Shown one piece after another: positions 9,839 through 59,785 of a DNA stretch of 64,000 nucleotides. The notes under the pieces were generated by a model that was not told the origin of the DNA, did no database searches, and saw nothing but the letters and a program-made list of their open reading frames with translations. Within the stretch, counting starts at the first letter, position 1, and every line of letters begins with the position of its first letter. The stretch lies in NCBI GenBank assembly GCA_035461305.1, contig DATHVN010000076.1, positions 667-64,666 of the forward strand, read 5' to 3'. This stretch comes from Euzebyales bacterium (GTDB lineage: Bacteria > Actinomycetota > Nitriliruptoria > Euzebyales > JAHELV01). Both the position numbers and the translations under genes were made by a program.

Positions 9839-9923
9839 TGCTGCCTCCTGCTGGTGTTCGCTGTCCTTCGTGGGCGTCGGCTGTGGTCGGGGATCGGTCA
9901 CCCTCCTCGGTCGTGGATGGTCA

Positions 9924-46971: not shown

Positions 46972-48446
46972 CCACGCCCACCACGGGACCGGCCGAGGAG
47001 CTGGTCGCGGCCGGGTTCGCCTATGAGGTCGGCGATGCGCCGGAGCTGCACCACGGCCTGAACCTGGCCGACATCGCACACGTGCTCGTGCTACGGGAAC
47101 GGGGACTGCTGCCCGACGCCACGATGGTGCCGCTGCTGCGGCTGCTGCTCGAGACGCATCGACGCCCCGTCGACGACTTCCCGTACGACCCGGCGTACGG
47201 CGAGGTCTACAACTGTCGGGAACGCCACTTCGTGGCGCGGCTCGGCGACGACGCCGGTTGGCTGCACGCCGGACGTCCACGGCGCGAGGCCGTGCGTGTA
47301 GCACTGCGACTGCGGCTACGCGAGATCACGGCCGACCTGGTGTGCGCCACGGCCGGCCTTGTGATCGCACTCGCCGATCGGGCCGCCGAGCATGCCGAGA
47401 CCTGCATGGCTGACCAGACCTATCTCCAACAGGCCCAGCCCTCGACGTTGGGTCACTACCTGCTCTCGTTCGCGTACCCGACGCTGCGCGACGGGCGGCG
47501 TGCGCTGGCGGCACTCGACGACATCAACCGCAGTCCCGGTGGGGCCGGGTGCGCGAACGGCAGCGGACTGCAGCTCGACCGCGGCCGCGTGGCGGACCTG
47601 CTCGGCTTCGACGGCATCATCGAGCACACGCGCGACGCCATGTGGCAGACCGACGGCCTGATCGATGTCACGGCGACCGCAGCAAGCCTGGTCGCCGGCG
47701 CCGACAAGTTGGCGGAGGATCTGGAGATCTGGTCGAGCCAGGAGTTCGACTACGTGTCCCTGGCGGCGCCCTACACGCGGGCCAGCGTGCTGATGCCCCA
47801 GAAGCGCAACCCGTACGCGCTGAGCGTGGTGCGTGGCAGCACGGGCCTCCTCATCGGCCGGCTCACGGGCCTGCTCGCGGTGACCAAGAGCCCGTCGGCG
47901 CGCAGCGACAACCTCATCTTCTCGTACGGCGACATCCCCCGGGCACTGACACAGGCGCGGCGGGTGGTCGAGCTGATGCGCGGGGTCGTGGCGACCCTGG
48001 AGGTGCACGCTGACCGTATGTGGTCGGCGCTGATCTCCGGGTTCACCCAGGCCACCGACCTCGCGGAGTTCGTCATGCAGCGCTGCGAGGTGGACTACCG
48101 CACGGCCTACCTCATCGTCGGACGCGCCGTCCAGACCGCGGCGGTCACAGGTCTGCGTGGCGTCGATCTCACGGGTGAGATGCTCGATGCCGCCTCCGTC
48201 GAACACCATGGCGACGCGCTTGGGCTGGCCGGCAGCGACCTGAGTGCCGTCCTGGACCCGCGTCGACTCGTGGCTGACCGCCTGGTCCCGGGCGGCGCCG
48301 CCCCTCGGCTGGTGCGCCAGATGGCCGACACGGTCCGCTCGCAGGCCAAGCAACTGGATCGGGGGGTGTCGGAGCGCCGTGCACGTATGCAGGCCGCCGA
48401 GCAGGCGCTTCTGCGCCGTGCCGAGCTGGTGATCGCCGATGGGTAG
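46968..48446 (+). CDS. Fumarate-lyase superfamily enzyme, argininosuccinate-lyase-like
   Basis: GTG 46968 overlaps the upstream stop (GTGA). ..TYLQQAQPSTLGHYLL.., signature ASVLMPQKRNPYAL, ..GFTQATDLAEFV... Confidence 0.75.
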   Translation: MTTPTTGPAEELVAAGFAYEVGDAPELHHGLNLADIAHVLVLRERGLLPDATMVPLLRLLLETHRRPVDDFPYDPAYGEVYNCRERHFVARLGDDAGWLHAGRPRREAVRVALRLRLREITADLVCATAGLVIALADRAAEHAETCMADQTYLQQAQPSTLGHYLLSFAYPTLRDGRRALAALDDINRSPGGAGCANGSGLQLDRGRVADLLGFDGIIEHTRDAMWQTDGLIDVTATAASLVAGADKLAEDLEIWSSQEFDYVSLAAPYTRASVLMPQKRNPYALSVVRGSTGLLIGRLTGLLAVTKSPSARSDNLIFSYGDIPRALTQARRVVELMRGVVATLEVHADRMWSALISGFTQATDLAEFVMQRCEVDYRTAYLIVGRAVQTAAVTGLRGVDLTGEMLDAASVEHHGDALGLAGSDLSAVLDPRRLVADRLVPGGAAPRLVRQMADTVRSQAKQLDRGVSERRARMQAAEQALLRRAELVIADG

Positions 48447-48459
48447 ATCGCGCCGCGGC

Positions 48460-48855
48460 TCACGCGCCGCCTACGGCGTACTCGATCCGGGGGGGTTCGA
48501 TCAGCGTGTTCGAGACGAAGCAGTAGGCCTTCGCGCGCTCGATCAACTGCTCGGCGTCCGCGTCGGCGAGATCGGTCGTGACCTGCACGCGGATCCATGC
48601 GAAGCGGTTGCCCTCGTAGTCGGCCTCGACGCGGACCGCCAGCTGCTCGAGCGTGATGTCGCACTTGCGCGACGCGTGCGCCACCGCCATGGTGAAGCAC
48701 GTGGCCAGCGAGGCGAGGAACAGCTCGGTCGGAGTGGGACCATCATCCGTGCCACCGACCGACTCGGGCTCATCGGCCAGGATATCGAAGTCACGCACCG
48801 TGACCTGCGACCGGTACCCGCCCGACCACACGGCCAGGAGCGTCTTGTCAGCCAT
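48460..48855 (-). CDS. osmC: OsmC family protein (thiol peroxidase fold)
   Basis: Last 131 codons of ORF 48460..50175, from ATG 48855. ..GGTDDGPTPTELFLASLATCFT.., ..AKAYCFVSNTL.. carry the two conserved Cys. Confidence 0.75.
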   Translation of the reverse strand: MADKTLLAVWSGGYRSQVTVRDFDILADEPESVGGTDDGPTPTELFLASLATCFTMAVAHASRKCDITLEQLAVRVEADYEGNRFAWIRVQVTTDLADADAEQLIERAKAYCFVSNTLIEPPRIEYAVGGA

Positions 48856-48880: not shown

Positions 48881-50296
48881 ATGACCGCCGATCTGCCGGA
48901 CGAGCTGCAGGTCGTCAACATCGGGCTGCCGGTCTTTGGCGAGGCGGTCGAACGCCAGGGTGCGCGCGCCATCCAGGTGGACTGGCGCATCCCGGCGGGT
49001 GGCGATCGCGAGCAGATCGCGGCGTTGACGCGGCTGCACGGGCGGCACGCCGCGCGCGTCGACGAGGCCAACGCGACGGTCTTCGACCGCCTCGACCAGA
49101 TCGCGCCACGGATCACCGGCATCCGGCCGGTTGCCGAGGTCGCGGTCGACCTGCCCGAGCGCACGGTGTTGCACTCCGGCCCGCCGCTGCCGTGGTCCCA
49201 GCTGTGCGATCCGCTCCGGCGGTCGGTGCGCGCGGCCGTGGTCGCCGAGGGCTGGGCACCGACACCCGCTGACGCCGACACGCTGCTGGACGGCGGCGAC
49301 GTCGGGCTCACCCCCGCGAACCACCACGGAGGCGCCGTGCCGATGGCCAGCGCCATCGGGCCGTCGACGCCTGCGCTCATGGCCGAGGACCCCAAGGGTG
49401 GCACCCGTGCCTTCTCCGCCGTCAACCAGGGCCCCGGTCGCAGGGCCTGGATGGGCACCGACGCGCCCGAGGCCGTGGAACAGCTGATCTGGCTGCGCGA
49501 GGTCGGCGGTCCTGTGCTGGCCGCCGCGCTCGACGCGCATGGTCCGGTGAACGTGTTCGCCCTGGCAGCGCAGGGCCTGCAGATGGGCGACGACCTGCAC
49601 ATGCGCACGCAGGCCGCAACCAACCTGCTGGTACGTGACCTGCTGCCGTCACTGGTCGCCCTCGACGACCCGCGCACGGCCGAGGTCGCACGGTTCCTGT
49701 CCTCGAACCACCTGTTCTTCCTCAACCTCGCGATGGCAGGGGCCAAGGTCGTCGCGGACGCAGCCAGCGGGGTGCACGGATCCAGCGTCGTCGTGTCGAT
49801 GGCGCGCAACGGCACCACCTTCGGCATCCGGCTGTCGGGCACCGGAGACCGCTGGTTCATCGCCGACGCGCCGCCGGTCGGCGACGCGCTGTACCACGAG
49901 CAGTACGGCGACGACGACGCGGCACCCGATATCGGCGACAGTGCGGTCCTCGAGCTGGTGGGACTCGGGGGGGCCGCCGCGGCGGCGTCACCCGCCGTCG
50001 CCGGCTTCCTCGGCGGGACACTCGCCCAGGCCGTGGAGACCAGCGAGACCTTCGAGCAGCTGTGCATCGGGCGCAGCCGGCGGTTCAAGCTGCCGTACCT
50101 GGACTTCCGGGGATCGCCCGTCGGCGTCGATGCCCGCCGGGTGGTCGAGCTCGAGCGGACGCCGGCCATCAACACCGGGATCCTCGACGCCGAGCAGGGG
50201 CGCGGGCAGATCGGCGCCGGTGTCGCGCGCGCGCCGTTGGCGTGCTTCCGCGATGCCGTCCTTGCGCTTGATCAGGCGCTGTCGAATCCCGACTGA
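48881..50296 (+). CDS. DUF1116 protein (YlbE/AllG-like, FdrA partner)
   Basis: ATG 48881. ..LQVVNIGLPVFGEAV..VDWRIPAGGD.., ..FFLNLAMAGAK.., ..ARNGTTFGIRLSG.., ..AINTGILDAEQGRGQIGAGVARAPLACF.. parallels my recollection of E. coli YlbE. Confidence 0.75.
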   Translation: MTADLPDELQVVNIGLPVFGEAVERQGARAIQVDWRIPAGGDREQIAALTRLHGRHAARVDEANATVFDRLDQIAPRITGIRPVAEVAVDLPERTVLHSGPPLPWSQLCDPLRRSVRAAVVAEGWAPTPADADTLLDGGDVGLTPANHHGGAVPMASAIGPSTPALMAEDPKGGTRAFSAVNQGPGRRAWMGTDAPEAVEQLIWLREVGGPVLAAALDAHGPVNVFALAAQGLQMGDDLHMRTQAATNLLVRDLLPSLVALDDPRTAEVARFLSSNHLFFLNLAMAGAKVVADAASGVHGSSVVVSMARNGTTFGIRLSGTGDRWFIADAPPVGDALYHEQYGDDDAAPDIGDSAVLELVGLGGAAAAASPAVAGFLGGTLAQAVETSETFEQLCIGRSRRFKLPYLDFRGSPVGVDARRVVELERTPAINTGILDAEQGRGQIGAGVARAPLACFRDAVLALDQALSNPD

Positions 50297-51453
50297 CGCC
50301 GGAGCGCGCCGGCGGCAGCGGCGTCATGGACCTCGGCGTGCTGCCGCGCGCACGCGGCCCACGTGAACATGGACGCAACACCGGGGCCCGTGGCGCCCAG
50401 CGACGACCGCAGTGCGGGATCGGTGATCACCCGCCGGATCCCGCCGGCGAGGCCGGCGGCGTCGCCGACAGGGGTCAGCACGGCTCCGACGCCATCGTCG
50501 AGGAACTCGCGGAAGACGGGGATGTCGCTCGCGATCACCGGCAGTCCCGCCGCCATCGCCTCGAGCACGACCAGCCCGAAGCCCTCCTTGACCGACGGGA
50601 ACACCAACACATCGGCCGCGTGGTACCACGACGTAAGCTCGGCATCCGACACCGTCCCCACCATCCGGATGTGCTCGGTCAATGCAAGCTGCTCGGCACG
50701 GTCGAGGACCTGCTTCCGGTACCGGCGGTGATCCTGGAAGGAATGGCCGCCGACGACGACGAGCAGGGGCGGCGGATCCAGTTCGTCCCGGATCATCGCC
50801 AGCGCCTCGATCAGCTCCATGCTGCCCTTGCGAGGCTCGATGCCCCCGACGGTCAGCAGGAGGGAACGGCCAGCGGCGCCGATACGCGCTCGCAGGGTCG
50901 ACACCGGGATGGCCGGATCGACTGCGAACCGACGTGTGTCGACACCGTTGGTCACGACGGTCGCCGCGACGCCGAACTCGGTGGACAGGCCGTCGCGCCA
51001 GTGGCGGCTGACAACGAGCACGTGGTCGGGATCGAGGATCGAGCGCCGCTGGCACTCGATCAGTGCCTCTGTGGTGAAGTCGTCGACGTGGTGCACGGTG
51101 CGGATCACACGGATGGGCAGGCCGTCGTCACGGAGGTGCACCGCGGCCCGCGCGGCGATGCAGTCCTGGGTGTGCACGACCGGGTAACCGTCGAGGCCCG
51201 CGGCCAACCCGCTGGTGAGCGCCTCGATCGACGCGAACACCCGCTTCTCGAGCGTCGGCAGGTGGGGCGGCGCCGGGATGATCGTCACCGGAGCATCCAC
51301 CGGCCGGAAGAACCCCACATCCGGGTCGCCGAGCCCGAAGATCCGGACGGGCCGCCCGATCGCGGTCAGCGCCTCGGCCAGGTGGAGCGTGTGCACCACG
51401 CCGCCGCGCGGACGTGTCGAGTAGGTGACCAGCGCGACAGGCGCGGGGTTCAT
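50272..51453 (-). CDS. GT4-type glycosyltransferase, MSMEG_0565-family type
   Basis: ATG 51453 (MNPAPVALVTYSTRPRGGVVHTLHLAEAL..). An alternative GTG 51549 overlaps the FdrA stop (GTGA). C-terminal ..FPSVKEGFGLVVLEAMAAGLPV... The 3' end overlaps the DUF1116 gene by 25 nt (convergent). Confidence 0.7.
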   Translation of the reverse strand: MNPAPVALVTYSTRPRGGVVHTLHLAEALTAIGRPVRIFGLGDPDVGFFRPVDAPVTIIPAPPHLPTLEKRVFASIEALTSGLAAGLDGYPVVHTQDCIAARAAVHLRDDGLPIRVIRTVHHVDDFTTEALIECQRRSILDPDHVLVVSRHWRDGLSTEFGVAATVVTNGVDTRRFAVDPAIPVSTLRARIGAAGRSLLLTVGGIEPRKGSMELIEALAMIRDELDPPPLLVVVGGHSFQDHRRYRKQVLDRAEQLALTEHIRMVGTVSDAELTSWYHAADVLVFPSVKEGFGLVVLEAMAAGLPVIASDIPVFREFLDDGVGAVLTPVGDAAGLAGGIRRVITDPALRSSLGATGPGVASMFTWAACARQHAEVHDAAAAGALRRQSGFDSA

Positions 51454-51545
51454 GTGGTGTGTGATCTCCAGGCCAACGGACGGGCCCGAGTGGTGCGGCG
51501 TCCGAGCGGCGCGCAGGCGGCCGTGCGACAAGGGCGCCGGGCGGT

Positions 51546-53111
51546 TCACGCCACGTCCTCGGCGATCGTCGGATCACGTGCGGCAATCGCCGCGGCCAGC
51601 AGGGCGGCACGGGCGTTGGTGGGCGCGAGCAGGCAACCGGCGTCGGTCAGCTGCGCTCGCTGGCCCGCGAGGTCCTGGGGGTCGTCGTCGGTACCGAGCA
51701 CGTACGCGACGACAGCCGGTGCGTCGGCTGCGGAGGTGATCTCCTCGCAGACGGGTGCGAGCACGCCCGCGGGGTCGTCGTGGGCACCGTGGCCCAGCAC
51801 CACGTCGAGCAGCACCACGGCGGTCGCGGGATCCGCGCCGTGTGTGCGCAGCTGCTCGGCTCGCGGCTCCGGATCGATCATCGGGTGCGGACGACCCCTG
51901 GTGTACTCCTCGGCCCCGAGGTCCAGGCACTGGTGCGCGTCGTCGTCCGCAGGCAGCCCCCAGCCGTCCCGCAGCGGCGTGTTGGAGTGCACGGCCCCGA
52001 GGTGACGGGACGCCAGGACCATCGCCTCGTAGCACAACGTCCCGCCGGAGAACAGCCCGCGCAGCGACCGACGGCCGCCGCCCAGACCTCCGACGGCGTC
52101 CCGGGCACAGCGTGCCATGCCGCGGGCGGGATCGGGCCGCGCACGACCCAGCGCGTCCAGCACCGACAGCGCCGCTTGTTCCAGCGACCCTGCCAGCGCC
52201 ACGTCATGGGGCGCGGTGACCGCGCTGTGGTCGAGGCCGATGAACGCAGCGACGCTCGGCACGCCGTCCAGCTCCTCCAGCAGTGCGTACGCGACCTGCG
52301 GCGCCGGTGGCTTGGAGACCACCAGCAGGACCGATGTCGCAGGATCCGCGCACAGCGCCGCCAAGCCCATGCGCAACGCGACGCCGCCGACGTCCGCCGA
52401 GGTGTCGCGACCGCCGACGCCGATGACGTGGGAGGGACCCGCGCCCCAGCGGTGCAGCAGGGTCATGACCTCCTGTGCTCCCGTTCCGGCGGCCGCCACC
52501 ACACCGACGGGACCTGGCTCGACGACGTTGGCGAACCCAAGGCCGACGCCTCCGAGCATCGCCGTGCCGGCGTCCGGGCCCATCACGAGCAGGCCGACGT
52601 CGCGGGCGCGGCGCTTCAGCTCGATCTCATCAGCGACGGCGATCCCGCTGCTGAACAGCAGCACGTGCAGTCCGGCCGACAGTGCCTTGTGCGCCTCGAG
52701 CACCGCGTACTCGGCGGCGACGGAGATCAGTGCGACGTTGGCGTCGGACAGTTCCTGGACCGCCTGCTCCAGGGTCTGCGGCCCGGGTCGGCCGCCGCCG
52801 GACGGGTCGGGTCGGTCGGATCCGTCGTCGCCCTCCAGCGCGGCCTCGCCCGCGGCCAGCGCGGCCCGGGCGGTGTCGTCGTCAGTGGCGGCGACCGCCA
52901 GCACCACATCGTTGGCCCCGACACCGTCGAGGTCGCCTGCGGCGAAGCCGGTCTCGATCAGATCGTCCCGGTTGGCCGGGGTGCCCATCAGCGCGGCGAC
53001 GGTGCCGGTGCCCCCGACGTCGCCCATCGCGCGCCGCGCGGCCATCAGGCGTACCGAGTCCGCGTACTGCTCGGTCTGCACGCGAACGCGGTGCACCGTG
53101 TCGGTCGTCAT
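51546..53111 (-). CDS. fdrA: FdrA family protein (succinyl-CoA-synthetase-alpha-like)
   Basis: ..YADSVRLM.., ..ALISVAAEYA..EAHKALSAGLHVLLFS.., ..GPVGVVAAAGTGAQEV.., ..VIGVGGRD... ATG 53111 overlaps the upstream stop (ATGA). Confidence 0.75.
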   Translation of the reverse strand: MTTDTVHRVRVQTEQYADSVRLMAARRAMGDVGGTGTVAALMGTPANRDDLIETGFAAGDLDGVGANDVVLAVAATDDDTARAALAAGEAALEGDDGSDRPDPSGGGRPGPQTLEQAVQELSDANVALISVAAEYAVLEAHKALSAGLHVLLFSSGIAVADEIELKRRARDVGLLVMGPDAGTAMLGGVGLGFANVVEPGPVGVVAAAGTGAQEVMTLLHRWGAGPSHVIGVGGRDTSADVGGVALRMGLAALCADPATSVLLVVSKPPAPQVAYALLEELDGVPSVAAFIGLDHSAVTAPHDVALAGSLEQAALSVLDALGRARPDPARGMARCARDAVGGLGGGRRSLRGLFSGGTLCYEAMVLASRHLGAVHSNTPLRDGWGLPADDDAHQCLDLGAEEYTRGRPHPMIDPEPRAEQLRTHGADPATAVVLLDVVLGHGAHDDPAGVLAPVCEEITSAADAPAVVAYVLGTDDDPQDLAGQRAQLTDAGCLLAPTNARAALLAAAIAARDPTIAEDVA

Positions 53112-53644
53112 GCGGCGATCTCGTCCTGGCCACGCTCGACGTCGTCGACGACTCGCGTGCCATGGCGTCCGTCGAGCGCGTCGCCGACGTGGGGGTCCGA
53201 CGTGATCAGGGCGAGGCGCGCTCCGCGGCCGACGAACTCGGTCGTCGACTCGACCTTCGGCCCCATCGAGCCCACGGGGAACTGGCCGTCAGCGAGGTGC
53301 GCCCGTGCCTGCGCGACGGTCATCTCGTCGATGGAACGCTGCGCGGGTGTGTCGTAGTCGATCGCGACGGCCGGCACACCGGTCACCAGCACCAGCAGCT
53401 CGGCGCCGAGACCGGTCGCCAGGTGCGCGGCCACGCGGTCCTTGTCGATGACGGCGTCGACGCCGTGCAGACCGTCGTCGCTGCGCAGCAGGGTGACGCC
53501 GCCGCCGCCGGCGATCACGACCACCGCGTCGACCAGTGCGCGCACGCTGTCCATCTCGAGCACCTCGACCGGCACGTCGTAGGCGCCCGAGGCACCCTCC
53601 GGGACGAACGCGTTGCCGCCGAACGCGATCACCGCCGTCGGCAT
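53108..53644 (-). CDS. Carbamate-kinase-like protein, abnormally short (178 aa) with the central region missing in frame
   Basis: N-terminus AVIAFGGNAF joins almost directly to the C-terminal lobe (..VVVIAGGGGV..GVDAVIDKDRVAAHLA..LLVLVTGVPAV..FPVGSMGPKVEST..). My recollection of carbamate kinases is ~310 aa. Confidence 0.55.
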   Translation of the reverse strand: MPTAVIAFGGNAFVPEGASGAYDVPVEVLEMDSVRALVDAVVVIAGGGGVTLLRSDDGLHGVDAVIDKDRVAAHLATGLGAELLVLVTGVPAVAIDYDTPAQRSIDEMTVAQARAHLADGQFPVGSMGPKVESTTEFVGRGARLALITSDPHVGDALDGRHGTRVVDDVERGQDEIAA

Positions 53645-53647
53645 CGA

Positions 53648-54223
53648 TCACCTCGTCCTGAAGGCCATCCACATCGCCCTGGTCACGCCGGAGGAGATGT
53701 TCCGCCATTGGTGCGGCCGGTCGGTCCGGAAGTGCAGGGAGTCGCCGGCCGTCAGCGTGTAGCACTCCTCGTCGACCCGGATCTCCATGCCGCCGTCGAG
53801 GACGTGGACCAGTTCCTCGCCGGGGTGCTCCATCGGCTGCGCCCCGCTGTCGGCTCCGGCATCGAGCACCGCGACCGCGCCGGCCAGCAGGAACTGACCG
53901 TAGGGTCCGCTGATCCCTTGCAGCTCGAGTCCCTGTTTGGAGGTGAGCACCGGACGGCGGTCCGCGGCGGGCGTGAACACGGCGGGACGGCCCAGGTCCT
54001 CCTCGTCGACGAAGAAGGCGACCGACCGGTTGAGCGCGGCCGCCAGCTTCATCAACGTCGTGATCGTCGGGGTCATGTGCGAGTGCTCGATCTTGTGGAT
54101 CGCGGCTGTCGACACCCCGGAGCGGTCGGCGAGCTGCTGCATCGACAGCCCCTTCTGCTGGCGGACCTGGCGGAGCTTGCCGCCGATCGCTCCGACGACA
54201 GCATCAAGGGCAGCTTGCGGCAC
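53648..54223 (-). CDS. XRE-family HTH regulator with a C-terminal cupin domain
   Basis: ..IGGKLRQVRQQKGLSMQQLADRSGVSTAAIHKIE.. HTH and a cupin (..HPGEELVHVLDGGMEIRVDEECYTLTAGDSLHF..). Start at GTG 54223 or TTG 54241. The stop lies 3 nt before the CK-like start. Confidence 0.75.
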   Translation of the reverse strand: MPQAALDAVVGAIGGKLRQVRQQKGLSMQQLADRSGVSTAAIHKIEHSHMTPTITTLMKLAAALNRSVAFFVDEEDLGRPAVFTPAADRRPVLTSKQGLELQGISGPYGQFLLAGAVAVLDAGADSGAQPMEHPGEELVHVLDGGMEIRVDEECYTLTAGDSLHFRTDRPHQWRNISSGVTRAMWMAFRTR

Positions 54224-54265
54224 GTGGCACCCACTTGGCAACGTACGGTTCGTTCCGTAGGATCA

Positions 54266-54301
54266 TATCCGATAGGAAAGAAGTTCTGCCACTATCCGAT
54301 A
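54266..54301. promoter_or_regulatory. Two copies of the palindromic 9-mer TATCCGATA in a divergent intergenic region (candidate operator pair)
   Basis: TATCCGATA occurs at 54266-54274 and 54293-54301 (27 nt centre to centre). Both sit in the AT-richer 95-nt spacer between the XRE-cupin gene and the flavoprotein gene. Confidence 0.55.
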
Positions 54302-54336
54302 TGGTCGCGCGTGCTGGCACGGCGTGACAGGAGGCA

Positions 54337-55683
54337 ATGGTGCGGATCCTCGTGGTCGGCGGGGGCGCCTCGGGTATGGGCGCGGTCGGTGCAGCGGAGA
54401 CCGTGAACTCCGACGCGGACGTCGGGATGTTCACGGCATACGAGGACATCGCCTACAGCCCGTGCGGGATCCCCTACGTGCACGGCGGCGAGATCGACGA
54501 CTTCGACGCGTTGTTCCTGCAGGGCAAGGAGTTCTACGCCGATCGCGGCATCGACGTGCACTACGAGACGGTCGTCACCGACATCGACCTGGACCGCCAG
54601 CAGTTGACCGTGCACGACGGATCCACCCACGGATTCGACCGCCTGGTCCTGTGCACAGGCTTCGAGTGGGTGCGGCCGGACCAGCCGGGCAACCAGCTGT
54701 CCGGTCTGCACTCGCCCAAGAACATCCGTGAGTCGATGGCGTTCGACAAGGTCCTCGACGACGCCCGGCGCGCGGTCGTCATCGGTGGCACGCCGCTGGG
54801 TGTCGAGATGGCAGGCGGCCTGGCCAAGCGTGGTCTGGACACCCACCTCGTCGACACCCATTCCTGGGTGCTGTCGGGCATCGCCGACCCCGACATGGTC
54901 GAGCCCGTCGAGGAGTCCCTCGTCGAGCTCGGCGTCACCCTTCACCCGACCACCGAGGTCTCGGCGTTCGTCGGCGTCAACAAGGTCAAGGCGGTCGCCA
55001 CATCCGCGGGCGACCTCGAGGCAGACGTCGTGGTCATCTGCGACAAGCGCCGGCCCAAGACGGAGCTGGCCGAGGCAGCAGGGCTCGACATCGGCTCGAC
55101 CGGCGGGTTGATCGTCGATGACCACCTGCGCACGTCGTCCCCGATCGTCTACGCCGCCGGCGACATCATCGAGATCCCCCATGAGCTGCACGGCATCCCG
55201 ACGCGTGGGTTGACCGGCAGCCACTCGTACGCTGAGGGCAAGGTCGCCGGCACCAACGCCGCGGGCGGAGACCGCAGATACCGACCGGTCGCCGTCCCCT
55301 GGGGACTGGTCGCGGGTAAGTGGGCGATCGGCGGCGCGGGCTTCGGCGAGAACCTTGCGGACGCCCTGGGCATGCCGTACGTGGTGGGCAAGGGCCAGGG
55401 CATCTCGCGCGCTCGGTACTACCCAGGGTTCAAGCCCGTCTGGGTCAAGCTGCTCGCCGATCCCGAGACGCACGCGCTGGTCGGCGCCCAGATGACCGGC
55501 GGCGAGGGCATCAAGGAGCGAGCCGACTTCCTGGCGATGGCCATCCGCAAGCGGATCACGATCGAGGACCTCGCCTCGATGGAGAACGTCTACGCACCTC
55601 CGATCGGCGCGGTCATGGAGCCGATCGCGATCTGCGCGCAGGGCCTGCAGGCCGACCTCGAGTCGGGTGCCCGCGACCGATGA
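54337..55683 (+). CDS. FAD/NAD(P)-dependent pyridine-nucleotide-disulfide oxidoreductase, Nox/CoA-disulfide-reductase-like
   Basis: ATG follows AGGAGG. ILVVGGGASG; single redox Cys context YSPCGIPYVHGG; second Rossmann VVIGGTPLGVEMAG; ..YAAGD..; C-terminal dimerisation domain. Confidence 0.75.
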   Translation: MVRILVVGGGASGMGAVGAAETVNSDADVGMFTAYEDIAYSPCGIPYVHGGEIDDFDALFLQGKEFYADRGIDVHYETVVTDIDLDRQQLTVHDGSTHGFDRLVLCTGFEWVRPDQPGNQLSGLHSPKNIRESMAFDKVLDDARRAVVIGGTPLGVEMAGGLAKRGLDTHLVDTHSWVLSGIADPDMVEPVEESLVELGVTLHPTTEVSAFVGVNKVKAVATSAGDLEADVVVICDKRRPKTELAEAAGLDIGSTGGLIVDDHLRTSSPIVYAAGDIIEIPHELHGIPTRGLTGSHSYAEGKVAGTNAAGGDRRYRPVAVPWGLVAGKWAIGGAGFGENLADALGMPYVVGKGQGISRARYYPGFKPVWVKLLADPETHALVGAQMTGGEGIKERADFLAMAIRKRITIEDLASMENVYAPPIGAVMEPIAICAQGLQADLESGARDR

Positions 55684-55925
55684 GTTGGATCCGACGGCTG
55701 TCGCAGTGGCTGCGCTCGAACTCCGAGCGCTACCTGCAGGAGGCCGCCGAACGCGACACGGCGGCACGCTACGGGCGTCCGCCGCCCCTCGTCGGCAGCG
55801 GACCTGTCGACCTGTTCTGGCGCTACGTGTTCGTCCCGATCTACCGGGCCCTGCCCTGGCGGATGCGGCTGACCGTGATGCGCGCGATGCCAGGCAGCCA
55901 CCGCAAGCAGTGGAGAGGAGGCTGA
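55680..55925 (+). CDS. Small hypothetical protein (81 aa), translationally coupled to the flavoprotein gene
   Basis: ATG 55680 overlaps the upstream TGA (ATGA). MSWIRRLSQWLRSNSERYLQEAAERD..VDLFWRYVFVPIYRALPW.. has one amphipathic/hydrophobic stretch. Coding status is uncertain. Confidence 0.4.
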   Translation: MSWIRRLSQWLRSNSERYLQEAAERDTAARYGRPPPLVGSGPVDLFWRYVFVPIYRALPWRMRLTVMRAMPGSHRKQWRGG

Positions 55926-56039
55926 CACCCCTGGGTTCGACGTGGGTGGCCACACCACCGGTGCGGTGGCCGCCGACGCCATCGCGGCGACACCGACCGC
56001 GAGCACCGGCACACGCAGCAACACGTCAAGGAGGCAGTG

Positions 56040-56525
56040 ATGGCGGACATCGTTGGCGAGCGAGTACAGCAAGGCGACGCGATCGTCGACTACGACCACA
56101 AGTACTTCGAGGACATCCAGGCGGAAGAGGGTGAATCGGCGTACGTCTTCATGCACACGGTGCCGTTCGAGGGGTCAGTCGGACTCGTCAACATGCTCAC
56201 GACGACGCGGATCAACCGGAAGGGGTTCGACACGCACCTGATCCTCTACGGCCCCGGCTCGCTGATGGCGGCCGCTAGTCGCGGCTACCCCAAGGTCGGC
56301 GACGAGGCCTTCCCCGGTGCACTGGCCTACAACAAGCAGCTGCAGACGTTCATGGACGAGGGCGGCCATGTGTACGCCTGCCGCTTCTCGGCCGCGGCGC
56401 TCTACGGCATGCGGGAGATCGACATGATGGAAGGCGTGCAGCCGCTGAACCCCCTCGACATCCTCGACGCGGTCCTCACGGCGCGCCGGCAGGGGGCATT
56501 GGTGCTGCAGACCTGGACGCTGTAG
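56040..56525 (+). CDS. MSMEG_0572/Sll0783-family type nitrogen-starvation-response protein (DsrE-like pattern)
   Basis: ATG 56040 lies 5 nt after AAGGAGG. ..VDYDHKYFEDIQAEEGE..FMHTVPFEGSVGLVNMLTTTR..LILYGPGSLMAA..FPGALAYNKQLQTFMDEGGHVYACRFSAAALYGMRE..LVLQTWTL matches my memory of this family. Confidence 0.6.
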   Translation: MADIVGERVQQGDAIVDYDHKYFEDIQAEEGESAYVFMHTVPFEGSVGLVNMLTTTRINRKGFDTHLILYGPGSLMAAASRGYPKVGDEAFPGALAYNKQLQTFMDEGGHVYACRFSAAALYGMREIDMMEGVQPLNPLDILDAVLTARRQGALVLQTWTL

Positions 56526-56545
56526 CGGCGCGACGCCCCGAGGTG

Positions 56546-57193
56546 ATGCGGGTGGATCTGCAGGTCGCCGAGGTCGTCGCATGTTGGCGCCGGGCCGAGG
56601 AGCGCCTGTACCCGGTCGTGATGGTCGACCCGGAGCGCTACACCCGCATCGTGTCCGTGATCCGGGCGACCGCCGACCGGCTCAGCGCGCACGACACGCC
56701 CGACGAGCTGGTCCGAGCCCGTGCGCGCGGCAGCGAGCTGGTCGCTGCATCGTGTGCGGCCGTCGGCGTGCCCGTCGCGCACCTTCCAGACCTCGAGGTG
56801 GTCGCGGACGCGGCGTTCGGACTGCGCCATCGTGAGGTCGAAGCCGAGCAGCGCCGCCAGCGGATGGCGGCCGGGATCGTCGCGGCGCGTGCGCGGGGGG
56901 ACACCTGGGTCACGCTCGACGAGTCCGGACAGCCCGACCCCCTTGGCGCGGCGCCGTACCAGCGCATCGACATGCGGCTCGACGACGGCAGTGGGATCCG
57001 GATGTCGATCGACGTCGATCCCGACTCCTATCGGCCGGTCTACACCCTCGAGCGCCTCCGTCTCGACCCAGTCAGCGGGGCCGTGACCGGATCGGCGGAC
57101 GCCGACCGTGCGACGTTCGCCGATCCCGCAGCGTGGCGGGCGGCCTTCGTGCGCTGGCGGGACGCCGACGCCGAGCGGCCCAGGTGCCCTTGA
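56546..57193 (+). CDS. Hypothetical protein with no recognisable domain (215 aa)
   Basis: GTG 56543 / ATG 56546 lie 18 nt after the upstream stop. Non-repetitive sequence (..AEVVACWRRAEERLYPVVMVDPERYTRIV..RMSIDVDPDSYRPVYTLERLRLDP..). Confidence 0.5.
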   Translation: MRVDLQVAEVVACWRRAEERLYPVVMVDPERYTRIVSVIRATADRLSAHDTPDELVRARARGSELVAASCAAVGVPVAHLPDLEVVADAAFGLRHREVEAEQRRQRMAAGIVAARARGDTWVTLDESGQPDPLGAAPYQRIDMRLDDGSGIRMSIDVDPDSYRPVYTLERLRLDPVSGAVTGSADADRATFADPAAWRAAFVRWRDADAERPRCP

Positions 57194-57208
57194 CATCCCG
57201 CCCACGCA

Positions 57209-57230
57209 GTCGTTTCTTATAGGAAACGAC
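57209..57230. promoter_or_regulatory. AT-rich perfect inverted repeat GTCGTTTC-ttatag-GAAACGAC (hairpin or operator)
   Basis: 8-bp arms and a 6-nt loop in the 96-nt gap between the 215-aa ORF and the amidohydrolase gene. TTGACA (57190-57195) lies 13 nt upstream. Confidence 0.5.
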
Positions 57231-57289
57231 GACTTGCCCATATGAAGCGCGGCACTCAGCGCACTGCGAACGCACAAAGGAACGTGAAC

Positions 57290-58147
57290 ATGGCGTCACA
57301 GGACCGTGTCGAACGGGACGTCTTCGACGGTCACAGCCACATCGGTGAGCTACCGCCGTACGCCTTCTACGACCTAACCGAGCCCGTCAAGCCGACGGTC
57401 TACGACTTCCCCGACACCAAGTCCTACCTCGATCACCTCGACACCCTCGGGGTCGAACGTGCGCTGGTGCTCCCCAACTACGGCGTTCCCGACCAGCAGG
57501 CCGCGTTCTCGCTGAACCCGGTCATGCTGGACGCGGTCACGTCGACGGACCGGCTGATCGGCGGCCTGTGGGTGTCGTTCCTGCCGCAGAACCGCGAGTC
57601 GACGAAGGAGGCCCTGCGCCACGCAGGCGAGGACGGGATCGTGGCGCTCAAGACCACGTTCCTGCTGGGCGGCACACCGAACCCCGACGATTGGGACGAG
57701 GAGACCGAGGAGATCGCCAACGCGTGTTTCGACGCCGCCGAGGAGCACGACCTGGTCTTCCACTTCCACACCAGCCCCGGCGGAGCGTCCGACATCAACA
57801 ACTACATCCCCCTGGTCCAGCGTTACGCCATGCGCGTCAAGACCCACCTCGTGCACTTCGGCGGCGGCGTCAGCGGTCACATCCGCCTCGTTCCCAGGTT
57901 CCTCGACTGGGTTGAGGAGGGTTACCGGGTCTACACGGACACGACCTGGTCGATCGGTTTCGGAGCGCGCTGGTTGATGACCGAGATCGAGAAGCGCGGC
58001 GTGGGTCACGATCGCGTGCTGTTCGCCTCGGACGAGCCGTGGAGCGACTTCTGGAGCGAGTACTACAAGATCAGGAACGCACCGGTCGGCGACGAGTTGA
58101 AGGACCGTGTCCTGCATCGCAACGCCGTGGAGCTCTACGAGAGGTGA
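57290..58147 (+). CDS. Amidohydrolase_2-type metal-dependent TIM-barrel hydrolase
   Basis: ATG 57290. N-terminal FDGHSHIG (HxH), ..LVFHFHT.., ..LVHFGGG.., ..LFASDEPW.. (Asp) fit the amidohydrolase pattern. Confidence 0.7.
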   Translation: MASQDRVERDVFDGHSHIGELPPYAFYDLTEPVKPTVYDFPDTKSYLDHLDTLGVERALVLPNYGVPDQQAAFSLNPVMLDAVTSTDRLIGGLWVSFLPQNRESTKEALRHAGEDGIVALKTTFLLGGTPNPDDWDEETEEIANACFDAAEEHDLVFHFHTSPGGASDINNYIPLVQRYAMRVKTHLVHFGGGVSGHIRLVPRFLDWVEEGYRVYTDTTWSIGFGARWLMTEIEKRGVGHDRVLFASDEPWSDFWSEYYKIRNAPVGDELKDRVLHRNAVELYER

Positions 58148-58152
58148 CGGCC

Positions 58153-59286
58153 ATGCCCAACGCCGACGACCGTGGGTTCGGCACCATGCTCGCCGACCTG
58201 CAGAGCTACGGCGCGCGCATCGAGCGTGAGATCGAAGGTCGTCGCGGCGGCGCCGGCCCCTCGGACGCCGGCATGATCTGGGTCGAGGGCGTGCGCGTGA
58301 CGTTCCCCTTCACCTCCGAGTACGTCGGGAACTCACCCTTCGTGCTGCGCGAGGACGTCGACGGCTGGCACCTGTGGCGCGACGGTGAACCGGTCGCGCG
58401 CGCCGAGGTGCCCGACCGCCCCCGCTTCTACGATCTGGAGACCGACGACGGCGTCCCGTACTGGAAGATCGCGCTGCTGCACATCGACTCGCTGGCCAGC
58501 ACGGTCATCCAGACCTGCAAGCACTGGGGCACCGACGACCAGTGCCACTTCTGCGGGATCGAGCTGTCTCTCGAGGCGGGTGCGACCATCCCGGTCAAGC
58601 GGCCGCACCAGCTCGCCGAGGTGGCGGCCGCCGCAAAGGAGCTCGACGGCGCGGTCGACGTGACCCTGACGACAGGGACCACCCATGGCCCTGACCGCGG
58701 TGCGCTCTACCTCGGGCGATGTGCGGCGGCGATCAAGGCCGCGACCGACCTGCCGATTCAGGTGCAGTTCGAGCCGCCGGAGGACCTGTCAGTGCTCGAC
58801 CGGATCAAGGCGCAGGGCGTTGATTCGGTGGGCATCCACGTCGAGTCGTTCGACCCCGACGTGCTGGCACGCATTGCGCCGCCGAAGGCACGCACAGGCA
58901 TCGACGGCTACTTCCACGCCTGGGAGCGCGCCGTCGCGGTCTTCGGTCGAGGCCAGGTGTCGACCTATGTGATCCTCGGGATGGGCGAGGACCTCGAGCT
59001 CACCGTCGACGGCTGTCGCCGCGCGGTCGACGCGGGGGTGTATCCGTTCGTGGTGCCGCTGCGGCCGGTCCCCGGGAGCATCCTCGAGGACCGGCTACCG
59101 CCATCACCCGACTACGTCGAGGCGATCTACCGGCGCGTCGGGCCCTACGTCACCAGCCGCGGCCTGGGATCCTGGAACGTCACCGCAGGGTGTGCACGGT
59201 GCCAGGCGTGTTCGGCCATCGCCGCCTTCGAGGAAACCGACGATGCTTCGACCCGCACTCGTCTCCCCGTTCTCGGCGTCAGCTGA
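58153..59286 (+). CDS. Radical SAM protein, MSMEG_0568-family type
   Basis: ATG 58153 lies 5 nt after the upstream stop. ..GGAGPSD.., ..PRFYDLETDDGVPYWKIALLH.., Cys cluster CKHWGTDDQCHFC, ..LTTGTT..DRGA.., ..GQVSTYVILGMGE.., ..GVYPFVVPLRPVPGS.., C-terminal ..AGCARCQACS. Confidence 0.75.
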   Translation: MPNADDRGFGTMLADLQSYGARIEREIEGRRGGAGPSDAGMIWVEGVRVTFPFTSEYVGNSPFVLREDVDGWHLWRDGEPVARAEVPDRPRFYDLETDDGVPYWKIALLHIDSLASTVIQTCKHWGTDDQCHFCGIELSLEAGATIPVKRPHQLAEVAAAAKELDGAVDVTLTTGTTHGPDRGALYLGRCAAAIKAATDLPIQVQFEPPEDLSVLDRIKAQGVDSVGIHVESFDPDVLARIAPPKARTGIDGYFHAWERAVAVFGRGQVSTYVILGMGEDLELTVDGCRRAVDAGVYPFVVPLRPVPGSILEDRLPPSPDYVEAIYRRVGPYVTSRGLGSWNVTAGCARCQACSAIAAFEETDDASTRTRLPVLGVS

Positions 59287-59785
59287 CGAGATCCGCCGGG
59301 CCCGCAAGGGCCCGACCCTGTCGTGCCGTGCCGCGGCGGACGATGAGCTGGCGCTGCACTGGCGTATCCGTCACGAGGTGTTCGTCGACGAGCAGGGCGT
59401 CTTCGACGTCGACGACCGCGACGAGTTCGACGACCGCGCCGGCACGGTGCATGCGCTCGGCTTGTGCGGCCCAGTCGCTGCGGGCACGGTGCGGTTCTAC
59501 CCCCTCAGCGACCCCCGGCTGTGGAAGGGTGACCGCCTCGCAGTGCTCCCGCCCTTCCGCAGCCTCGGACTCGGTGGGCCACTCGTGCGCTTCGCCGTGC
59601 ACACGGCAGGCACGCTGGGAGGCGAGCAGATGATCGCCTACATCCAGCCGCAGAACGTCGCGGTGTTCGAGCACCTCGGCTGGCGGACCGTCGGCCCGCT
59701 GATCGACTACGTCGGCCAGCCGCATCAGAAGATGCTGATTGACCTGTTGCGGTCCGACCCTCCCCACGTGACGCTCGTCCCGTAA
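59243..59785 (+). CDS. GNAT N-acetyltransferase, MSMEG_0567/Sll0786-family type
   Basis: ATG 59243 overlaps the rSAM 3' end by 44 nt. ..HWRIRHEVFVDEQGVFDVDDRDEFD..GTVRFYPL..WKGDRLAVLPPFR..IQPQNVAVFEHLGW..GQPHQKM... Confidence 0.7.
   Translation: MLRPALVSPFSASADEIRRARKGPTLSCRAAADDELALHWRIRHEVFVDEQGVFDVDDRDEFDDRAGTVHALGLCGPVAAGTVRFYPLSDPRLWKGDRLAVLPPFRSLGLGGPLVRFAVHTAGTLGGEQMIAYIQPQNVAVFEHLGWRTVGPLIDYVGQPHQKMLIDLLRSDPPHVTLVP

Follow-up and report, generated by a model that had tools for sequence, protein, structure and literature searches.

The gene that directly precedes the radical SAM gene in the Nit1C-type cluster analysed here encodes an amidohydrolase-like protein (AMH), which we tentatively interpret as a substitute, specific to its lineage and unrelated by descent, for the enzyme that converts the nitrile in such clusters. 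This reading may well be right, and AMH would then be the third alternative enzyme at this step; the other two are the Nit6803-type nitrilase, found in Proteobacteria, Cyanobacteria and Mycobacteriales, and a Co-type nitrile hydratase, found in other Actinomycetota. The Nit1C cluster, known since 2005, is needed by Pseudomonas to grow on cyanide; nitrogen starvation strongly induces it in Synechocystis and M. smegmatis, and it affects redox balance. The physiological substrate of its nitrilase is described as explicitly unresolved (PMC7815647). Membership in the Nit1C cluster was defined here by ORF1-ORF7 of Podar et al. (2005).

The window, by which we mean the entire 64-kb stretch of Euzebyales DNA that was analysed, contains the core of the cluster on one strand between 54337 and 59785. 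We use short names for a CoADR-like flavoprotein (FLV), an 81-aa orphan (sm), a 216-aa orphan (UNK) and the 285-aa Amidohydro_2 protein (AMH). In order, the features are:

54337..55683, plus strand: FLV, a CoA-disulfide-reductase/NADH-oxidase-type flavoprotein (Pyr_redox_2 and dimerisation domain)
55680..55925, plus strand: sm, an 81-aa orphan translationally coupled to FLV, without family match
56037..56525, plus strand: MSMEG_0572/Sll0783 (NitB) family protein (TIGR04044, 218 bits against a cutoff of 110)
56543/56546..57193, plus strand: UNK, an orphan protein of 216/215 aa, without family match, coding as judged by a GC3 of 0.87
57209..57230, no strand: perfect 22-bp palindrome GTCGTTTCTTATAGGAAACGAC between UNK and AMH, identified from the sequence
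57290..58147, plus strand: AMH, an Amidohydro_2 (PF04909) TIM-barrel protein of 285 aa (71.1 bits against a gathering score of 26.4)
58153..59286, plus strand: MSMEG_0568-family radical SAM protein, rSAM (NitD; TIGR04043, 408 bits against a cutoff of 304)
59192..59785, plus strand: MSMEG_0567/Sll0786 GNAT protein (NitE; TIGR04045, 102 bits against a cutoff of 68)

Open reading frames and profile matches thus confirm the gene order given in the initial annotation, namely Sll0783-like protein, unknown ORF, amidohydrolase, rSAM and GNAT. AMH is translationally coupled to the rSAM gene, with 5 bp between the AMH stop and the rSAM start. The 5' end of the GNAT gene overlaps the 3' end of the rSAM gene, and the GNAT start is uncertain. 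The rSAM protein is 42-46% identical to those of canonical clusters. The MSMEG_0572 protein retains the conserved cysteine of the YACRF motif; its family has been assigned a YchN/DsrE-like fold (PMC1199592, PMC6039565), and a PDB sequence search with the protein of the window as query gave no match. FLV has its redox cysteine in a YSPCG motif, and Nox, CoADR and CoA-persulfide reductase are closest to it in the PDB; it replaces the MSMEG_0569 flavin-dependent oxidoreductase, for which tblastn found no match in the window, the flavoprotein there being of the CoADR/Nox type. The sm gene is kept directly after FLV in 30 loci. MSMEG_0570 (NitG, ~95 aa) likewise had no tblastn or NCBIfam match in the window, and sm and UNK were rejected as diverged forms of NitG, as hhalign found no relationship to MSMEG_0570 (probability 1% for sm). 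A tblastn search of the whole 64-kb window with two Nit6803-type nitrilase queries returned no match at E<=1e-3.

The AMH gene most likely starts at 57290 and not at 57242, since its homologues (at least 120 clusters, with 72-96% identity) are almost all 284-288 aa long and begin with MASQ or MA.., and the ATG at 57290 has an AAAGGAA ribosome-binding site ahead of it. AMH comes from a compact family that is conserved very strongly and in which the HxH/His/His/Asp site of the amidohydrolase superfamily is intact. The family is small and sharply delimited, with 318 matches at E<=1e-3 among 1.84 billion representatives, and its 47-96% identity across carrier lineages indicates strong purifying selection. 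Among 45 distinct orthologues (47-100% identity), 61 residues are invariant, including K121 as well as D13, H15 and H17 of the HxH motif, H158, H160, H189 and D248. The AF2 model (pLDDT 81.5) is a (beta/alpha)8 barrel with eight strand/helix repeats, and model and alignment together place the HxH motif on beta1, one His each on beta5 and beta6, and the Asp on beta8. Metal binding and catalysis by AMH are putative; members of the LigI type retain the metal-site residues and yet bind no metal.

When the model was compared with the PDB by Foldseek, LigI, ACMSD, IDCase and LigJ matched with a TM of about 0.6; the characterised enzymes among the matches listed were these four, gamma-resorcylate decarboxylase and LigW, and the 50 matches listed included no characterised C-N hydrolase. 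LigJ, one of these structural matches, is a metal-dependent hydratase within PF04909. A PDB sequence search with AMH alone and with a 31-sequence profile gave one marginal C-terminal match only (8sm9, E 0.04-0.5). With its PF04909 / COG2159-COG3618 relatives, namely the LigI lactonase (4i6k, 4d8l), ACMSD (2hbv), IDCase (4hk5), gamma-resorcylate decarboxylase (2dvt) and the LigJ hydratase (6dxq), AMH shares the (beta/alpha)8 barrel, the N-terminal HxH, the beta5 and beta6 histidines and the beta8 Asp in an 'SD.P' motif, but it differs from them in sequence (13-17% identity), in structure (TM 0.5-0.66) and in genomic context, and none of the characterised members sits in a Nit1C-type cluster. 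Because its closest matches in structure (lactonases, decarboxylases and a C=C hydratase) show such low identity and a TM of about 0.6, homology cannot reveal the chemistry of AMH.

The arrangement seen in the window is recurrent. We surveyed the 80 species-level genomes with the rSAM closest to that of the window, scoring enzymes within +-10 kb, and AMH lies directly upstream of rSAM in 36 of them, as it does in 51 of 69 metagenome loci. Eight loci (L001-L008) have the same synteny as the window; the AMH-rSAM adjacency is kept across Acidimicrobiia, Thermoleophilia, Euzebyales, Egibacterales and Streptosporangiales, and the two genes overlap or are 5 bp apart. This is far beyond chance. No Nit6803-type nitrilase adjoins the rSAM gene in any of the 80 genome loci. 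The amidohydrolase is therefore neither a neighbour of rSAM in one genome only nor always accompanied by a nearby nitrilase, and the proposal that it recurs at the nitrilase position with the nitrilase absent there was borne out. As a point against the replacement, L029 has a distal AMH together with a frameshifted nitrilase-like gene. The description of this position as the slot normally held by the nitrilase is apt for proteobacterial and cyanobacterial clusters, where the nitrilase lies between the Sll0783-like and rSAM genes (L009, L010, L172; PMC1199592), but not for the Rhodococcus/M. smegmatis type, where rSAM comes straight after 0572 and two C-N hydrolases are encoded further downstream. 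In 22 of the 80 loci neither AMH nor nitrile hydratase was present within +-10 kb, and in L137 an AMH orthologue lies away from any cluster gene, so unlinked copies of either enzyme are possible. A tblastn search for AMH in 72,556 plasmids gave no match, and the plasmid-borne rSAM homologues are all of the canonical nitrilase type, with at most 46.5% identity. Cultured carriers include Conexibacter sp. CPCC 206217 (L072), of the AMH type, and Leekyejoonella antrihumi (L038), with a distal AMH.

Another 12 of the 80 loci (L016, L028, L039, L041-43, L045, L048, L051, L054, L059, L060) carry Co-type nitrile hydratase beta, alpha and accessory genes, among them those of the cultured Nonomuraea sediminis (L054) and Actinomycetospora species (L059, L060). 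These genes exceed the NCBIfam equivalog cutoffs (TIGR01323 with 302 bits, TIGR03888 with 179, TIGR03889 with 79) and the VCTLCSC motif is present. The variant shares rSAM, GNAT, the glycosyltransferase, AllF, carbamate kinase, UNK and FLV-sm-0572 with the AMH type, and differs in that the three nitrile hydratase genes, from an unrelated enzyme family, replace AMH. Nitrile hydratase follows directly after 0572 in L039, L041, L045, L059 and others, and stands just before rSAM in L051 (accessory gene end 9909, rSAM start 10001); AMH lies directly before rSAM in the window and directly after 0572 in L046, L029, L133 and L151. The two enzymes thus share the same two positions, and they are nearly mutually exclusive: of the 49 loci that have 0572 in range, AMH alone is present in 36 and nitrile hydratase alone in 11, with one locus carrying both and one neither (Fisher p=5e-9 over the 49 loci, with shared ancestry ignored). 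Nitrile hydratase was found in 0 of 80 AMH-centred metagenome loci (711 kb). One locus, L082, has AMH adjoining rSAM and a nitrile-hydratase alpha gene at the locus edge. On a neighbour-joining tree of rSAM the types are interleaved, with L016 (nitrile hydratase) inside the AMH clade, L054/L039 sister to L038/L079/L056, and L047 sister to a nitrile-hydratase group, showing several independent switches between the two enzymes. The alternation of nitrilase, nitrile hydratase and AMH at this position supports a replacement of the nitrile-converting step, and it strengthens the original suggestion of a non-homologous replacement. In the literature we found no published description of an AMH- or nitrile-hydratase-type cluster and no link of Nit1C to nitrile hydratase, amidohydrolase or carbamate kinase.

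The initial annotation had counted the 215-aa protein as part of the replacement, and this did not hold. UNK accompanies rSAM regardless of AMH. It lies directly upstream of rSAM whether a locus has AMH, nitrile hydratase or neither enzyme (present in 35/44, 8/12 and 19/23 of these loci, respectively) and so stands outside the swap; within the actinobacterial clade it is a distinct, rapidly evolving companion of the rSAM and GNAT core genes. Homologues in the same position are 32-100% identical. Pfam and NCBIfam profiles gave no match to UNK; its AF2 model (pLDDT 92) combines a four-helix bundle at the N terminus with a five-stranded sheet and a helix at the C terminus, and Foldseek against the PDB found no significant fold match for it (best E 0.16).

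Between UNK and AMH, the palindrome GTCGTTTCTTATAGGAAACGAC sits 14 bp after a TTGACA hexamer and has no second exact copy in the window; similar GTTTCCTA..GGAAAC elements precede AMH in L001, L011, L012, L013, L018 and L088. The hexamer and palindrome (57190-57230) probably form an internal promoter or operator, a role that we offer as a conjecture. A consensus promoter/terminator scan did not call this element and returned a single promoter-like site, upstream of FLV, and Rfam and tRNA scans of the window gave no match and no riboswitch clue.

Upstream of FLV the window contains a second group of genes:

41877..42872, minus strand: sll0787-type AIR-synthase-like protein, NitF homologue (TIGR04049, 266 bits, below the cutoff of 321)
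42922..48446, plus strand: xcbB(ComA)-xcbA-xcbD-xcbE-xcbC-like set for bacterial coenzyme-M biosynthesis (PF02679, NCBIfam profiles)
48460..48855, minus strand: OsmC-like protein (PF02566 on the orthologue)
48881..50296, plus strand: AllG (DUF1116) homologue (PF06545 AllG on orthologues; tblastn map)
50272..51549, minus strand: MSMEG_0565-family glycosyltransferase (TIGR04047, 372 bits)
51546..53111, minus strand: AllF/FdrA homologue, oxamic transcarbamylase subunit family (NF004760, 419 bits, below the cutoff of 433)
53108..53644, minus strand: 178-aa remnant of a carbamate kinase (by BLASTP with the 320-aa enzyme of L006)
53648..54241, minus strand: HTH-cupin (PuuR-like) regulator, divergent from FLV and conserved in position (HTH_3 and Cupin_2)

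The glycosyltransferase gene overlaps that of AllF by 4 bp, which places the two in the same operon. PF27530 HMA_AllF_N is annotated on the AllF orthologues of L001 and L006. The carbamate kinase of the window has suffered an in-frame loss of about 137 residues, and the gene is missing in L001, L016 and L018. AllF, AllG and carbamate kinase occur in nearly all AMH and nitrile-hydratase loci and are absent from the canonical L009, L010, L171 and L172. The association with AllF and carbamate kinase is confounded with clade. The NitF homologue, 38-40% identical to canonical NitF, lies about 15 kb upstream of rSAM in the window and adjoins it in most related loci. Within the xcb-like set (xcbB/ComA, 42922-43740; xcbA, 43737-44591; xcbD, 44588-45967; xcbE, 45958-46971; xcbC, 46968-48446), XcbA scores 312 bits with NF052538, above the cutoff of 150, and XcbD (584 against 600), XcbE (267 against 450), XcbC (422 against 575) and ComA are best family matches that fall below 'exception'-level cutoffs. 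The bacterial coenzyme-M pathway (XcbA-E) has been described (PMC9457059). A role of AMH as the decarboxylase of coenzyme-M synthesis was considered and rejected: nitrile-hydratase-type loci keep xcb without AMH, and the Xcb enzymes cover that step (PMC9457059).

Compared with canonical Nit1C (nitBCDEFGH; sll0783-sll0787; MSMEG_0565-0572 'gpr'), the window shares 0572, the 0568 rSAM, the 0567 GNAT and the 0565 glycosyltransferase above NCBIfam cutoffs; it also has an sll0787-like AIR-synthase-like protein, which scores below its cutoff and lies apart from rSAM. Where canonical Nit1C has the Nit6803 nitrilase, MSMEG_0570 and MSMEG_0569, however, the window has AMH, UNK, the 81-aa orphan and the CoADR-type flavoprotein, and its cluster is fused to the AllF/AllG/carbamate-kinase and xcbA-E-like genes. 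The cluster contains homologues of AllF, AllG, (AllH) and carbamate kinase from the E. coli AllFGH oxamic transcarbamylase and AllK carbamate kinase system (PMC11326118, PMC9843812), and its AllF gene is transcribed together with that of the Nit1C glycosyltransferase. It differs from the E. coli system in that its setting is not allantoin catabolism and that the carbamate kinase of the window is truncated.

If AMH is the stand-in that we propose, metal-activated water would hydrate or hydrolyse the cyano carbon of a cluster intermediate, and the product would be of the same class as that of nitrile hydratase, an amide or carbamoyl group, from which the AllF/AllG(/AllH) carbamoyltransferase homologues and carbamate kinase could then recover the nitrogen. 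Against this, no member of the amidohydrolase superfamily is known to act on nitriles. It is possible, if somewhat doubtful, that AMH instead works at another step, through a reaction of the kind usual in its Pfam family (decarboxylation, hydrolysis of a lactone or hydration of C=C), with the anti-correlation reflecting lineage history and the nitrile step lost or encoded elsewhere. The known-function Foldseek matches listed (LigI, ACMSD, IDCase, gamma-resorcylate decarboxylase, LigW and LigJ) agree with this, as do the presence of both enzymes in L082 and the AMH outside the cluster in L137; moreover, the basal clades on the rSAM tree consist of AMH-adjacent clusters, which makes the pattern partly phylogenetic. 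However, AMH and nitrile hydratase share two insertion points and replace one another repeatedly within clades, neither the AMH loci nor the 64-kb window contain a further candidate for nitrile conversion, and the similarity to characterised enzymes is very low in both sequence and structure.

Chance or selfish association of AMH and UNK, without any role in the cluster, has the single unlinked AMH copy of L137 and nothing else in its favour; with adjacency kept across five lineages, genes that overlap or lie 5 bp apart and 47-96% AMH identity, the surveys effectively refute it, and we consider it extremely improbable. The initial annotation had favoured a C-N hydrolase with an amide, amidine or lactam, and not a nitrile, as its substrate; AMH would then free ammonia from an amide in a pathway that makes no nitrile or uses an unlinked hydratase. 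AMH does belong to the amidohydrolase superfamily with its metal site intact, and the second C-N hydrolase of the mycobacterial-type canonical cluster is annotated as amidase-like (PMC6039565), so some forms of the cluster may include the hydrolysis of an amide. An amidase should nevertheless co-occur with a hydratase, whose product is an amide, and AMH is absent from 11 of the 12 nitrile-hydratase loci; this exclusion counts against the amidase role. In addition, no characterised PF04909 member is a C-N hydrolase, those of known function and the best Foldseek matches being lactonases, decarboxylases and the LigJ hydratase, and its alternation with nitrile hydratase would, if anything, favour a nitrile (cyano) compound as the substrate. 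We therefore regard an amidase as unlikely.

A more speculative extension, which we think has only a slim chance of being correct, views the whole supercluster as a system for thiol-cofactor-dependent capture and assimilation of a cyano group. The carrier would be coenzyme M, or a compound much like it, produced by the xcbA-E-like genes and bearing the cyano group in a thiocyanate ester or a cyanamide, with the cysteine of the DsrE-like MSMEG_0572 protein as an alternative. AMH or nitrile hydratase would convert this to an S- or N-carbamoyl compound, which the AllF/G/H homologues would phosphorolyse to carbamoyl phosphate; carbamate kinase would then yield ATP, NH3 and CO2, and the CoADR-like flavoprotein would recycle the disulfide. 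A nitrilase would instead take the same X-CN straight to X-H, CO2 and NH3, and clusters of that type would hence do without AllFGH and carbamate kinase. If this scheme is true, AMH would be the first nitrile- or cyano-hydrating member of the amidohydrolase superfamily.

The three unrelated enzymes alternating at one position provide independent comparative evidence for a cyano compound in the pathway, and the alternation yields a concrete, testable prediction for an uncharacterised amidohydrolase family, for which the cultured carriers of the AMH and nitrile-hydratase types make experiments feasible. The carbamoyl-phosphate-generating genes and the coenzyme-M-type pathway, joined to both variants, further restrict the plausible intermediates. 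In many actinobacteria, the presence of AMH or nitrile hydratase in the place of the nitrilase thus narrows the possible chemistry of this nitrogen-starvation and cyanide cluster.

ORF and family searches of the window, which has a G+C content of approximately 70%, confirmed the ORFs, motifs and gene order described in the initial annotation. Seven overlapping or closely spaced genes run along the + strand from 54337 to 59785, and are given here with two further genes of the cluster.

Genes of the cluster (coordinates, strand, identity)
54337-55683, +, FLV, a CoADR/NADH-oxidase-type flavoprotein with a YSPCG redox cysteine; best PDB relatives Nox, CoADR and CoA-persulfide reductase
55680-55925, +, sm, an 81-aa orphan
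56037-56525, +, 0572, the MSMEG_0572/Sll0783 protein (TIGR04044, 218 bits)
56543-57193, +, UNK, a 216-aa orphan
57290-58147, +, AMH, a 285-aa Amidohydro_2 protein
58153-59286, +, rSAM, the MSMEG_0568 radical-SAM enzyme (408 bits), starting 5 bp past the AMH stop
ending at 59785, +, the MSMEG_0567 GNAT
41877-42872, AIRS, a NitF-like AIR-synthase-like gene
53108-53644, -, carbamate-kinase remnant of 178 aa, in which about 137 residues have been deleted in frame (those at 23-159 in the 320-aa orthologue from the homologous locus L006)

When two annotated Nit6803-type nitrilases were used as tblastn queries, no match was found in the 64-kb window, nor did reference proteins for MSMEG_0569 and MSMEG_0570 detect a homologue there by tblastn. 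The cluster is related to the nitrilase gene cluster Nit1C, yet lacks three of its seven defining features, namely the nitrilase, MSMEG_0570 and the MSMEG_0569 flavoprotein, and is properly classed as a Nit1C-like variant rather than as a member. At 54337-55925, the FMO-like MSMEG_0569 and MSMEG_0570 are replaced by FLV, with its single redox cysteine, and the unrelated sm (neither sm nor UNK has a detectable relationship to MSMEG_0570). Together with the DsrE/YchN-like 0572 and its conserved YACRF cysteine, FLV and sm suggest thiol, disulfide or persulfide chemistry.

The AMH gene is best placed at 57290-58147, because the ATG at 57290 has an AAAGGAA ribosome-binding site ahead of it and because of the length of its homologues (almost all 284-288 aa in the best 120 of 1,624 clusters). 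These 1,624 relatives were found at E<=1e-5 in a clustered protein collection, the best 120 being 72-96% identical to AMH. The protein has a clear Pfam match to PF04909; no NCBIfam model names it, and PDB sequence and profile searches returned nothing useful. AF2 models it as a (beta/alpha)8 barrel (pLDDT 81.5), with a LigI-type lactonase, ACMSD, IDCase, gamma-resorcylate decarboxylase, LigW and the LigJ hydratase as best PDB neighbours (TM 0.5-0.66, 13-17% identity). The initial annotation had taken AMH for a C-N hydrolase, an enzyme type that is missing from these best structural neighbours. In 45 distinct orthologues, with identities as low as 47%, 61 positions never vary, including D13, H15, H17, K121, H158, H160, H189, H197, D217 and D248; judged by this conservation, the site is intact and strongly constrained. 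When 1.84 billion representatives were searched exhaustively by HMM, only 318 matched at E<=1e-3, and many of these are fragments; by sequence the AMH family is thus a small subfamily, sharply set off from the bulk of PF04909.

Two contigs with AMH relatives have the order FLV-sm-0572-UNK-AMH-rSAM-GNAT, with AIRS, the MSMEG_0565 glycosyltransferase, AllF, AllG, AllH and carbamate kinase near AMH, and without a CN_hydrolase within ±10 kb of it. For a wider survey, we took the 80 best loci from an rSAM alignment with one genome per species (rSAM 52-76% identical), and mapped them by tblastn with the proteins of the window and of two annotated canonical clusters as references. Nearly all are from Actinomycetota (Acidimicrobiia, Thermoleophilia, Euzebyales-like, Streptosporangiales, Pseudonocardiales, Propionibacteriales and other lineages). 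AMH is present in 45 of the 80 and directly upstream of rSAM in 36, while a Nit6803-type nitrilase was found beside rSAM in none by this mapping; the sole nitrilase-like match (36% identity) lies at the edge of locus L029, in a gene with a frameshift. An AMH-centred scan of metagenome contigs yielded 80 further loci (711 kb), and rSAM starts at most 200 bp downstream of AMH in 51 of the 69 with enough sequence. The initial annotation had allowed that the pairing might be confined to one genome, or that AMH clusters might always have a nitrilase nearby; these counts dispel both.

In L029, an Aeromicrobium MAG, the nitrilase-like CN_hydrolase (453-1387) is split over two frames by a frameshift or sequencing error. 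It adjoins the cluster glycosyltransferase and an ORF resembling phosphopantetheinyl transferases. Since L029 also contains a distal copy of AMH (47% identity), the locus may represent a decaying nitrilase inside an AMH-type cluster. On an 82-kb metagenome contig, L137:9992-10846 is an AMH orthologue (75% identity) with all catalytic residues, next to a large LuxR-type regulator and a short-chain dehydrogenase; the other cluster genes are absent within ±10 kb. Typical actinobacterial-type clusters occur in MAGs labelled Bacillota and Acidiferrobacterales (L015, L077), which may reflect mis-binning or horizontal transfer.

AMH and a genuine nitrile hydratase occupy equivalent positions, are nearly exclusive and have switched repeatedly, and other versions of the cluster carry a genuine nitrilase. 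Several loci had an unexplained gap of approximately 1.7 kb after FLV-sm-0572, and the ORFs in it encode nitrile hydratase beta, alpha (Co-type VCTLCSC motif) and accessory protein, all three exceeding NCBIfam equivalog cutoffs. Upon re-mapping, the trio was found in 12 of the 80 loci, directly after 0572 in L039, L041, L042, L045, L048, L054, L059 and L060, and directly before rSAM in L043 and L051 (in L051 the accessory gene, whose end is at 9909, is followed by rSAM from 10001). AMH takes the same two positions, before rSAM in the window and 36 genomes, and directly after 0572 in L029, L046, L133 and L151. Where 0572 is in range (49 loci), AMH occurs without nitrile hydratase in 36 and nitrile hydratase without AMH in 11; L082 has both, its alpha gene being truncated where the locus stops, and L014, on a contig of 10 kb, has neither. 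These counts correspond to a Fisher p of 5e-9 in a statistic that ignores shared phylogeny. In the single co-occurrence (L082:20721-21071, Solirubrobacteraceae), AMH adjoins rSAM, and the locus also includes the start of the alpha gene, divergent from a ComA-like gene; the sister loci L069 and L073 stop short of that point. Nitrile-hydratase loci fall among AMH loci at several points of a neighbour-joining tree built from the rSAM proteins, and the swap therefore occurred more than once. Four canonical clusters (Acetobacter, Klebsiella, Methylorubrum, Rhodococcus) carry nitrilase or CN-hydrolases, and AMH, UNK, AllF, carbamate kinase and xcb genes are absent from these four. With nitrile hydratase or AMH in other clusters, the position thus alternates among three enzymes, as fits the proposal in the initial annotation of a non-homologous occupant. 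The mycobacterial-type canonical cluster on the Rhodococcus qingshengii plasmid pLP1 (L171) has rSAM directly after 0572, a fused GNAT/AIRS protein, two separate carbon-nitrogen hydrolase genes and flanking IS elements; from this gene order, the nitrilase position is not fixed even among canonical clusters.

UNK had been assigned to the nitrilase slot together with the amidohydrolase, but it lies just upstream of rSAM (or AMH-rSAM) in 35 of the 44 loci with AMH, in 8 of the 12 with nitrile hydratase and in 19 of the 23 that have neither in range. As UNK is present whatever the variable enzyme, it is an actinobacterial core partner outside the swapped position, and its partner within the core is probably rSAM. 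Its homologues are 32-100% identical, evolving much faster than AMH, and its model (pLDDT 92: four-helix bundle, five-stranded sheet, terminal helix) has no significant structure match in the PDB.

Divergent from FLV, an operon with 4-bp overlaps, one of them between the AllF and glycosyltransferase genes, encodes an HTH-cupin regulator, the carbamate-kinase remnant, an AllF/FdrA homologue and the MSMEG_0565 glycosyltransferase; AllG, OsmC and a block of five genes are located upstream of it. AllF/AllG(/AllH) and carbamate kinase, homologous to the oxamic transcarbamylase and the catabolic carbamate kinase of E. coli (PMC11326118, PMC9843812), are integrated in the cluster in the window (48881-53644) and in loci L001-L090. 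The carbamate kinase of the window probably has no activity, unless its deletion is an artefact of MAG assembly, and the gene is absent altogether from L001, L016 and L018. The xcb pathway of coenzyme M biosynthesis is that of Xanthobacter. Best NCBIfam matches of the five-gene block (42922-48446) are to the bacterial coenzyme-M enzymes XcbA-E (pathway in PMC9457059), in the order XcbB (ComA), XcbA, XcbD, XcbE, XcbC, with XcbA above its cutoff and the other four below theirs. A complete xcbB(ComA)/xcbA/xcbD/xcbE/xcbC-like set adjoins the Nit1C-like core in the window and in most of the 80 loci reaching far enough; coenzyme M in Actinomycetota beyond alkene/vinyl-chloride degraders would be notable in itself. 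The whole 18-kb neighbourhood (41.9-59.8 kb) recurs in related genomes, with its order shuffled.

Between UNK and AMH (57190-57230), a TTGACA hexamer precedes an AT-rich palindrome, perfect over 22 bp (GTCGTTTCTTATAGGAAACGAC), and several loci have related elements upstream of AMH. A CTATCCGAYA motif is found in the regulator-FLV intergenic region (54235-54310) and upstream of distal AMH copies in L038, L052 and L056. These elements are possibly the operator of the HTH-cupin regulator and an internal promoter.

The reading we tentatively favour is that the step catalysed by AMH would be the addition of water to the cyano group of the cluster's intermediate. AllF/AllG(/AllH), usually with carbamate kinase, occur in the nitrile-hydratase and AMH versions and are absent from the four nitrilase-type canonical clusters examined. 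Read most simply, this would mean that an amide or carbamoyl group is formed, its nitrogen being recovered through carbamoyl phosphate; a nitrilase, by contrast, would free ammonia directly. Action of AMH on an amide or lactam, as proposed in the initial annotation, seems improbable and fits poorly, because an amidase should accompany nitrile hydratase, whereas AMH excludes it.

Counting against water addition, no nitrile hydratase is known in the amidohydrolase superfamily. Assignment of AMH to the nitrile step is further weakened by the locus with both enzymes (L082), by the unlinked AMH of L137, and by the 22 of the 80 loci with neither enzyme within 10 kb; the chief rival, in which AMH catalyses a reaction typical of its family elsewhere in the pathway, strikes us as rather unlikely. 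Recovery through carbamoyl phosphate is weakened by the confounding of the AllF/carbamate-kinase association with clade, and by the residues missing from the window's carbamate kinase.

Only the nitrilase form of Nit1C is described in the literature we searched, where the function of the cluster and the natural substrate of the nitrilase are regarded as unknown (PMC1199592, PMC7815647, PMC11049912, PMC6039565); no link of Nit1C with nitrile hydratase, amidohydrolase, AllFGH or coenzyme M was found there. The alternation of AMH and nitrile hydratase does not reveal what the cluster does, but it turns a long-standing unknown into specific, testable predictions, and several cultured carriers of the variant cluster are available.
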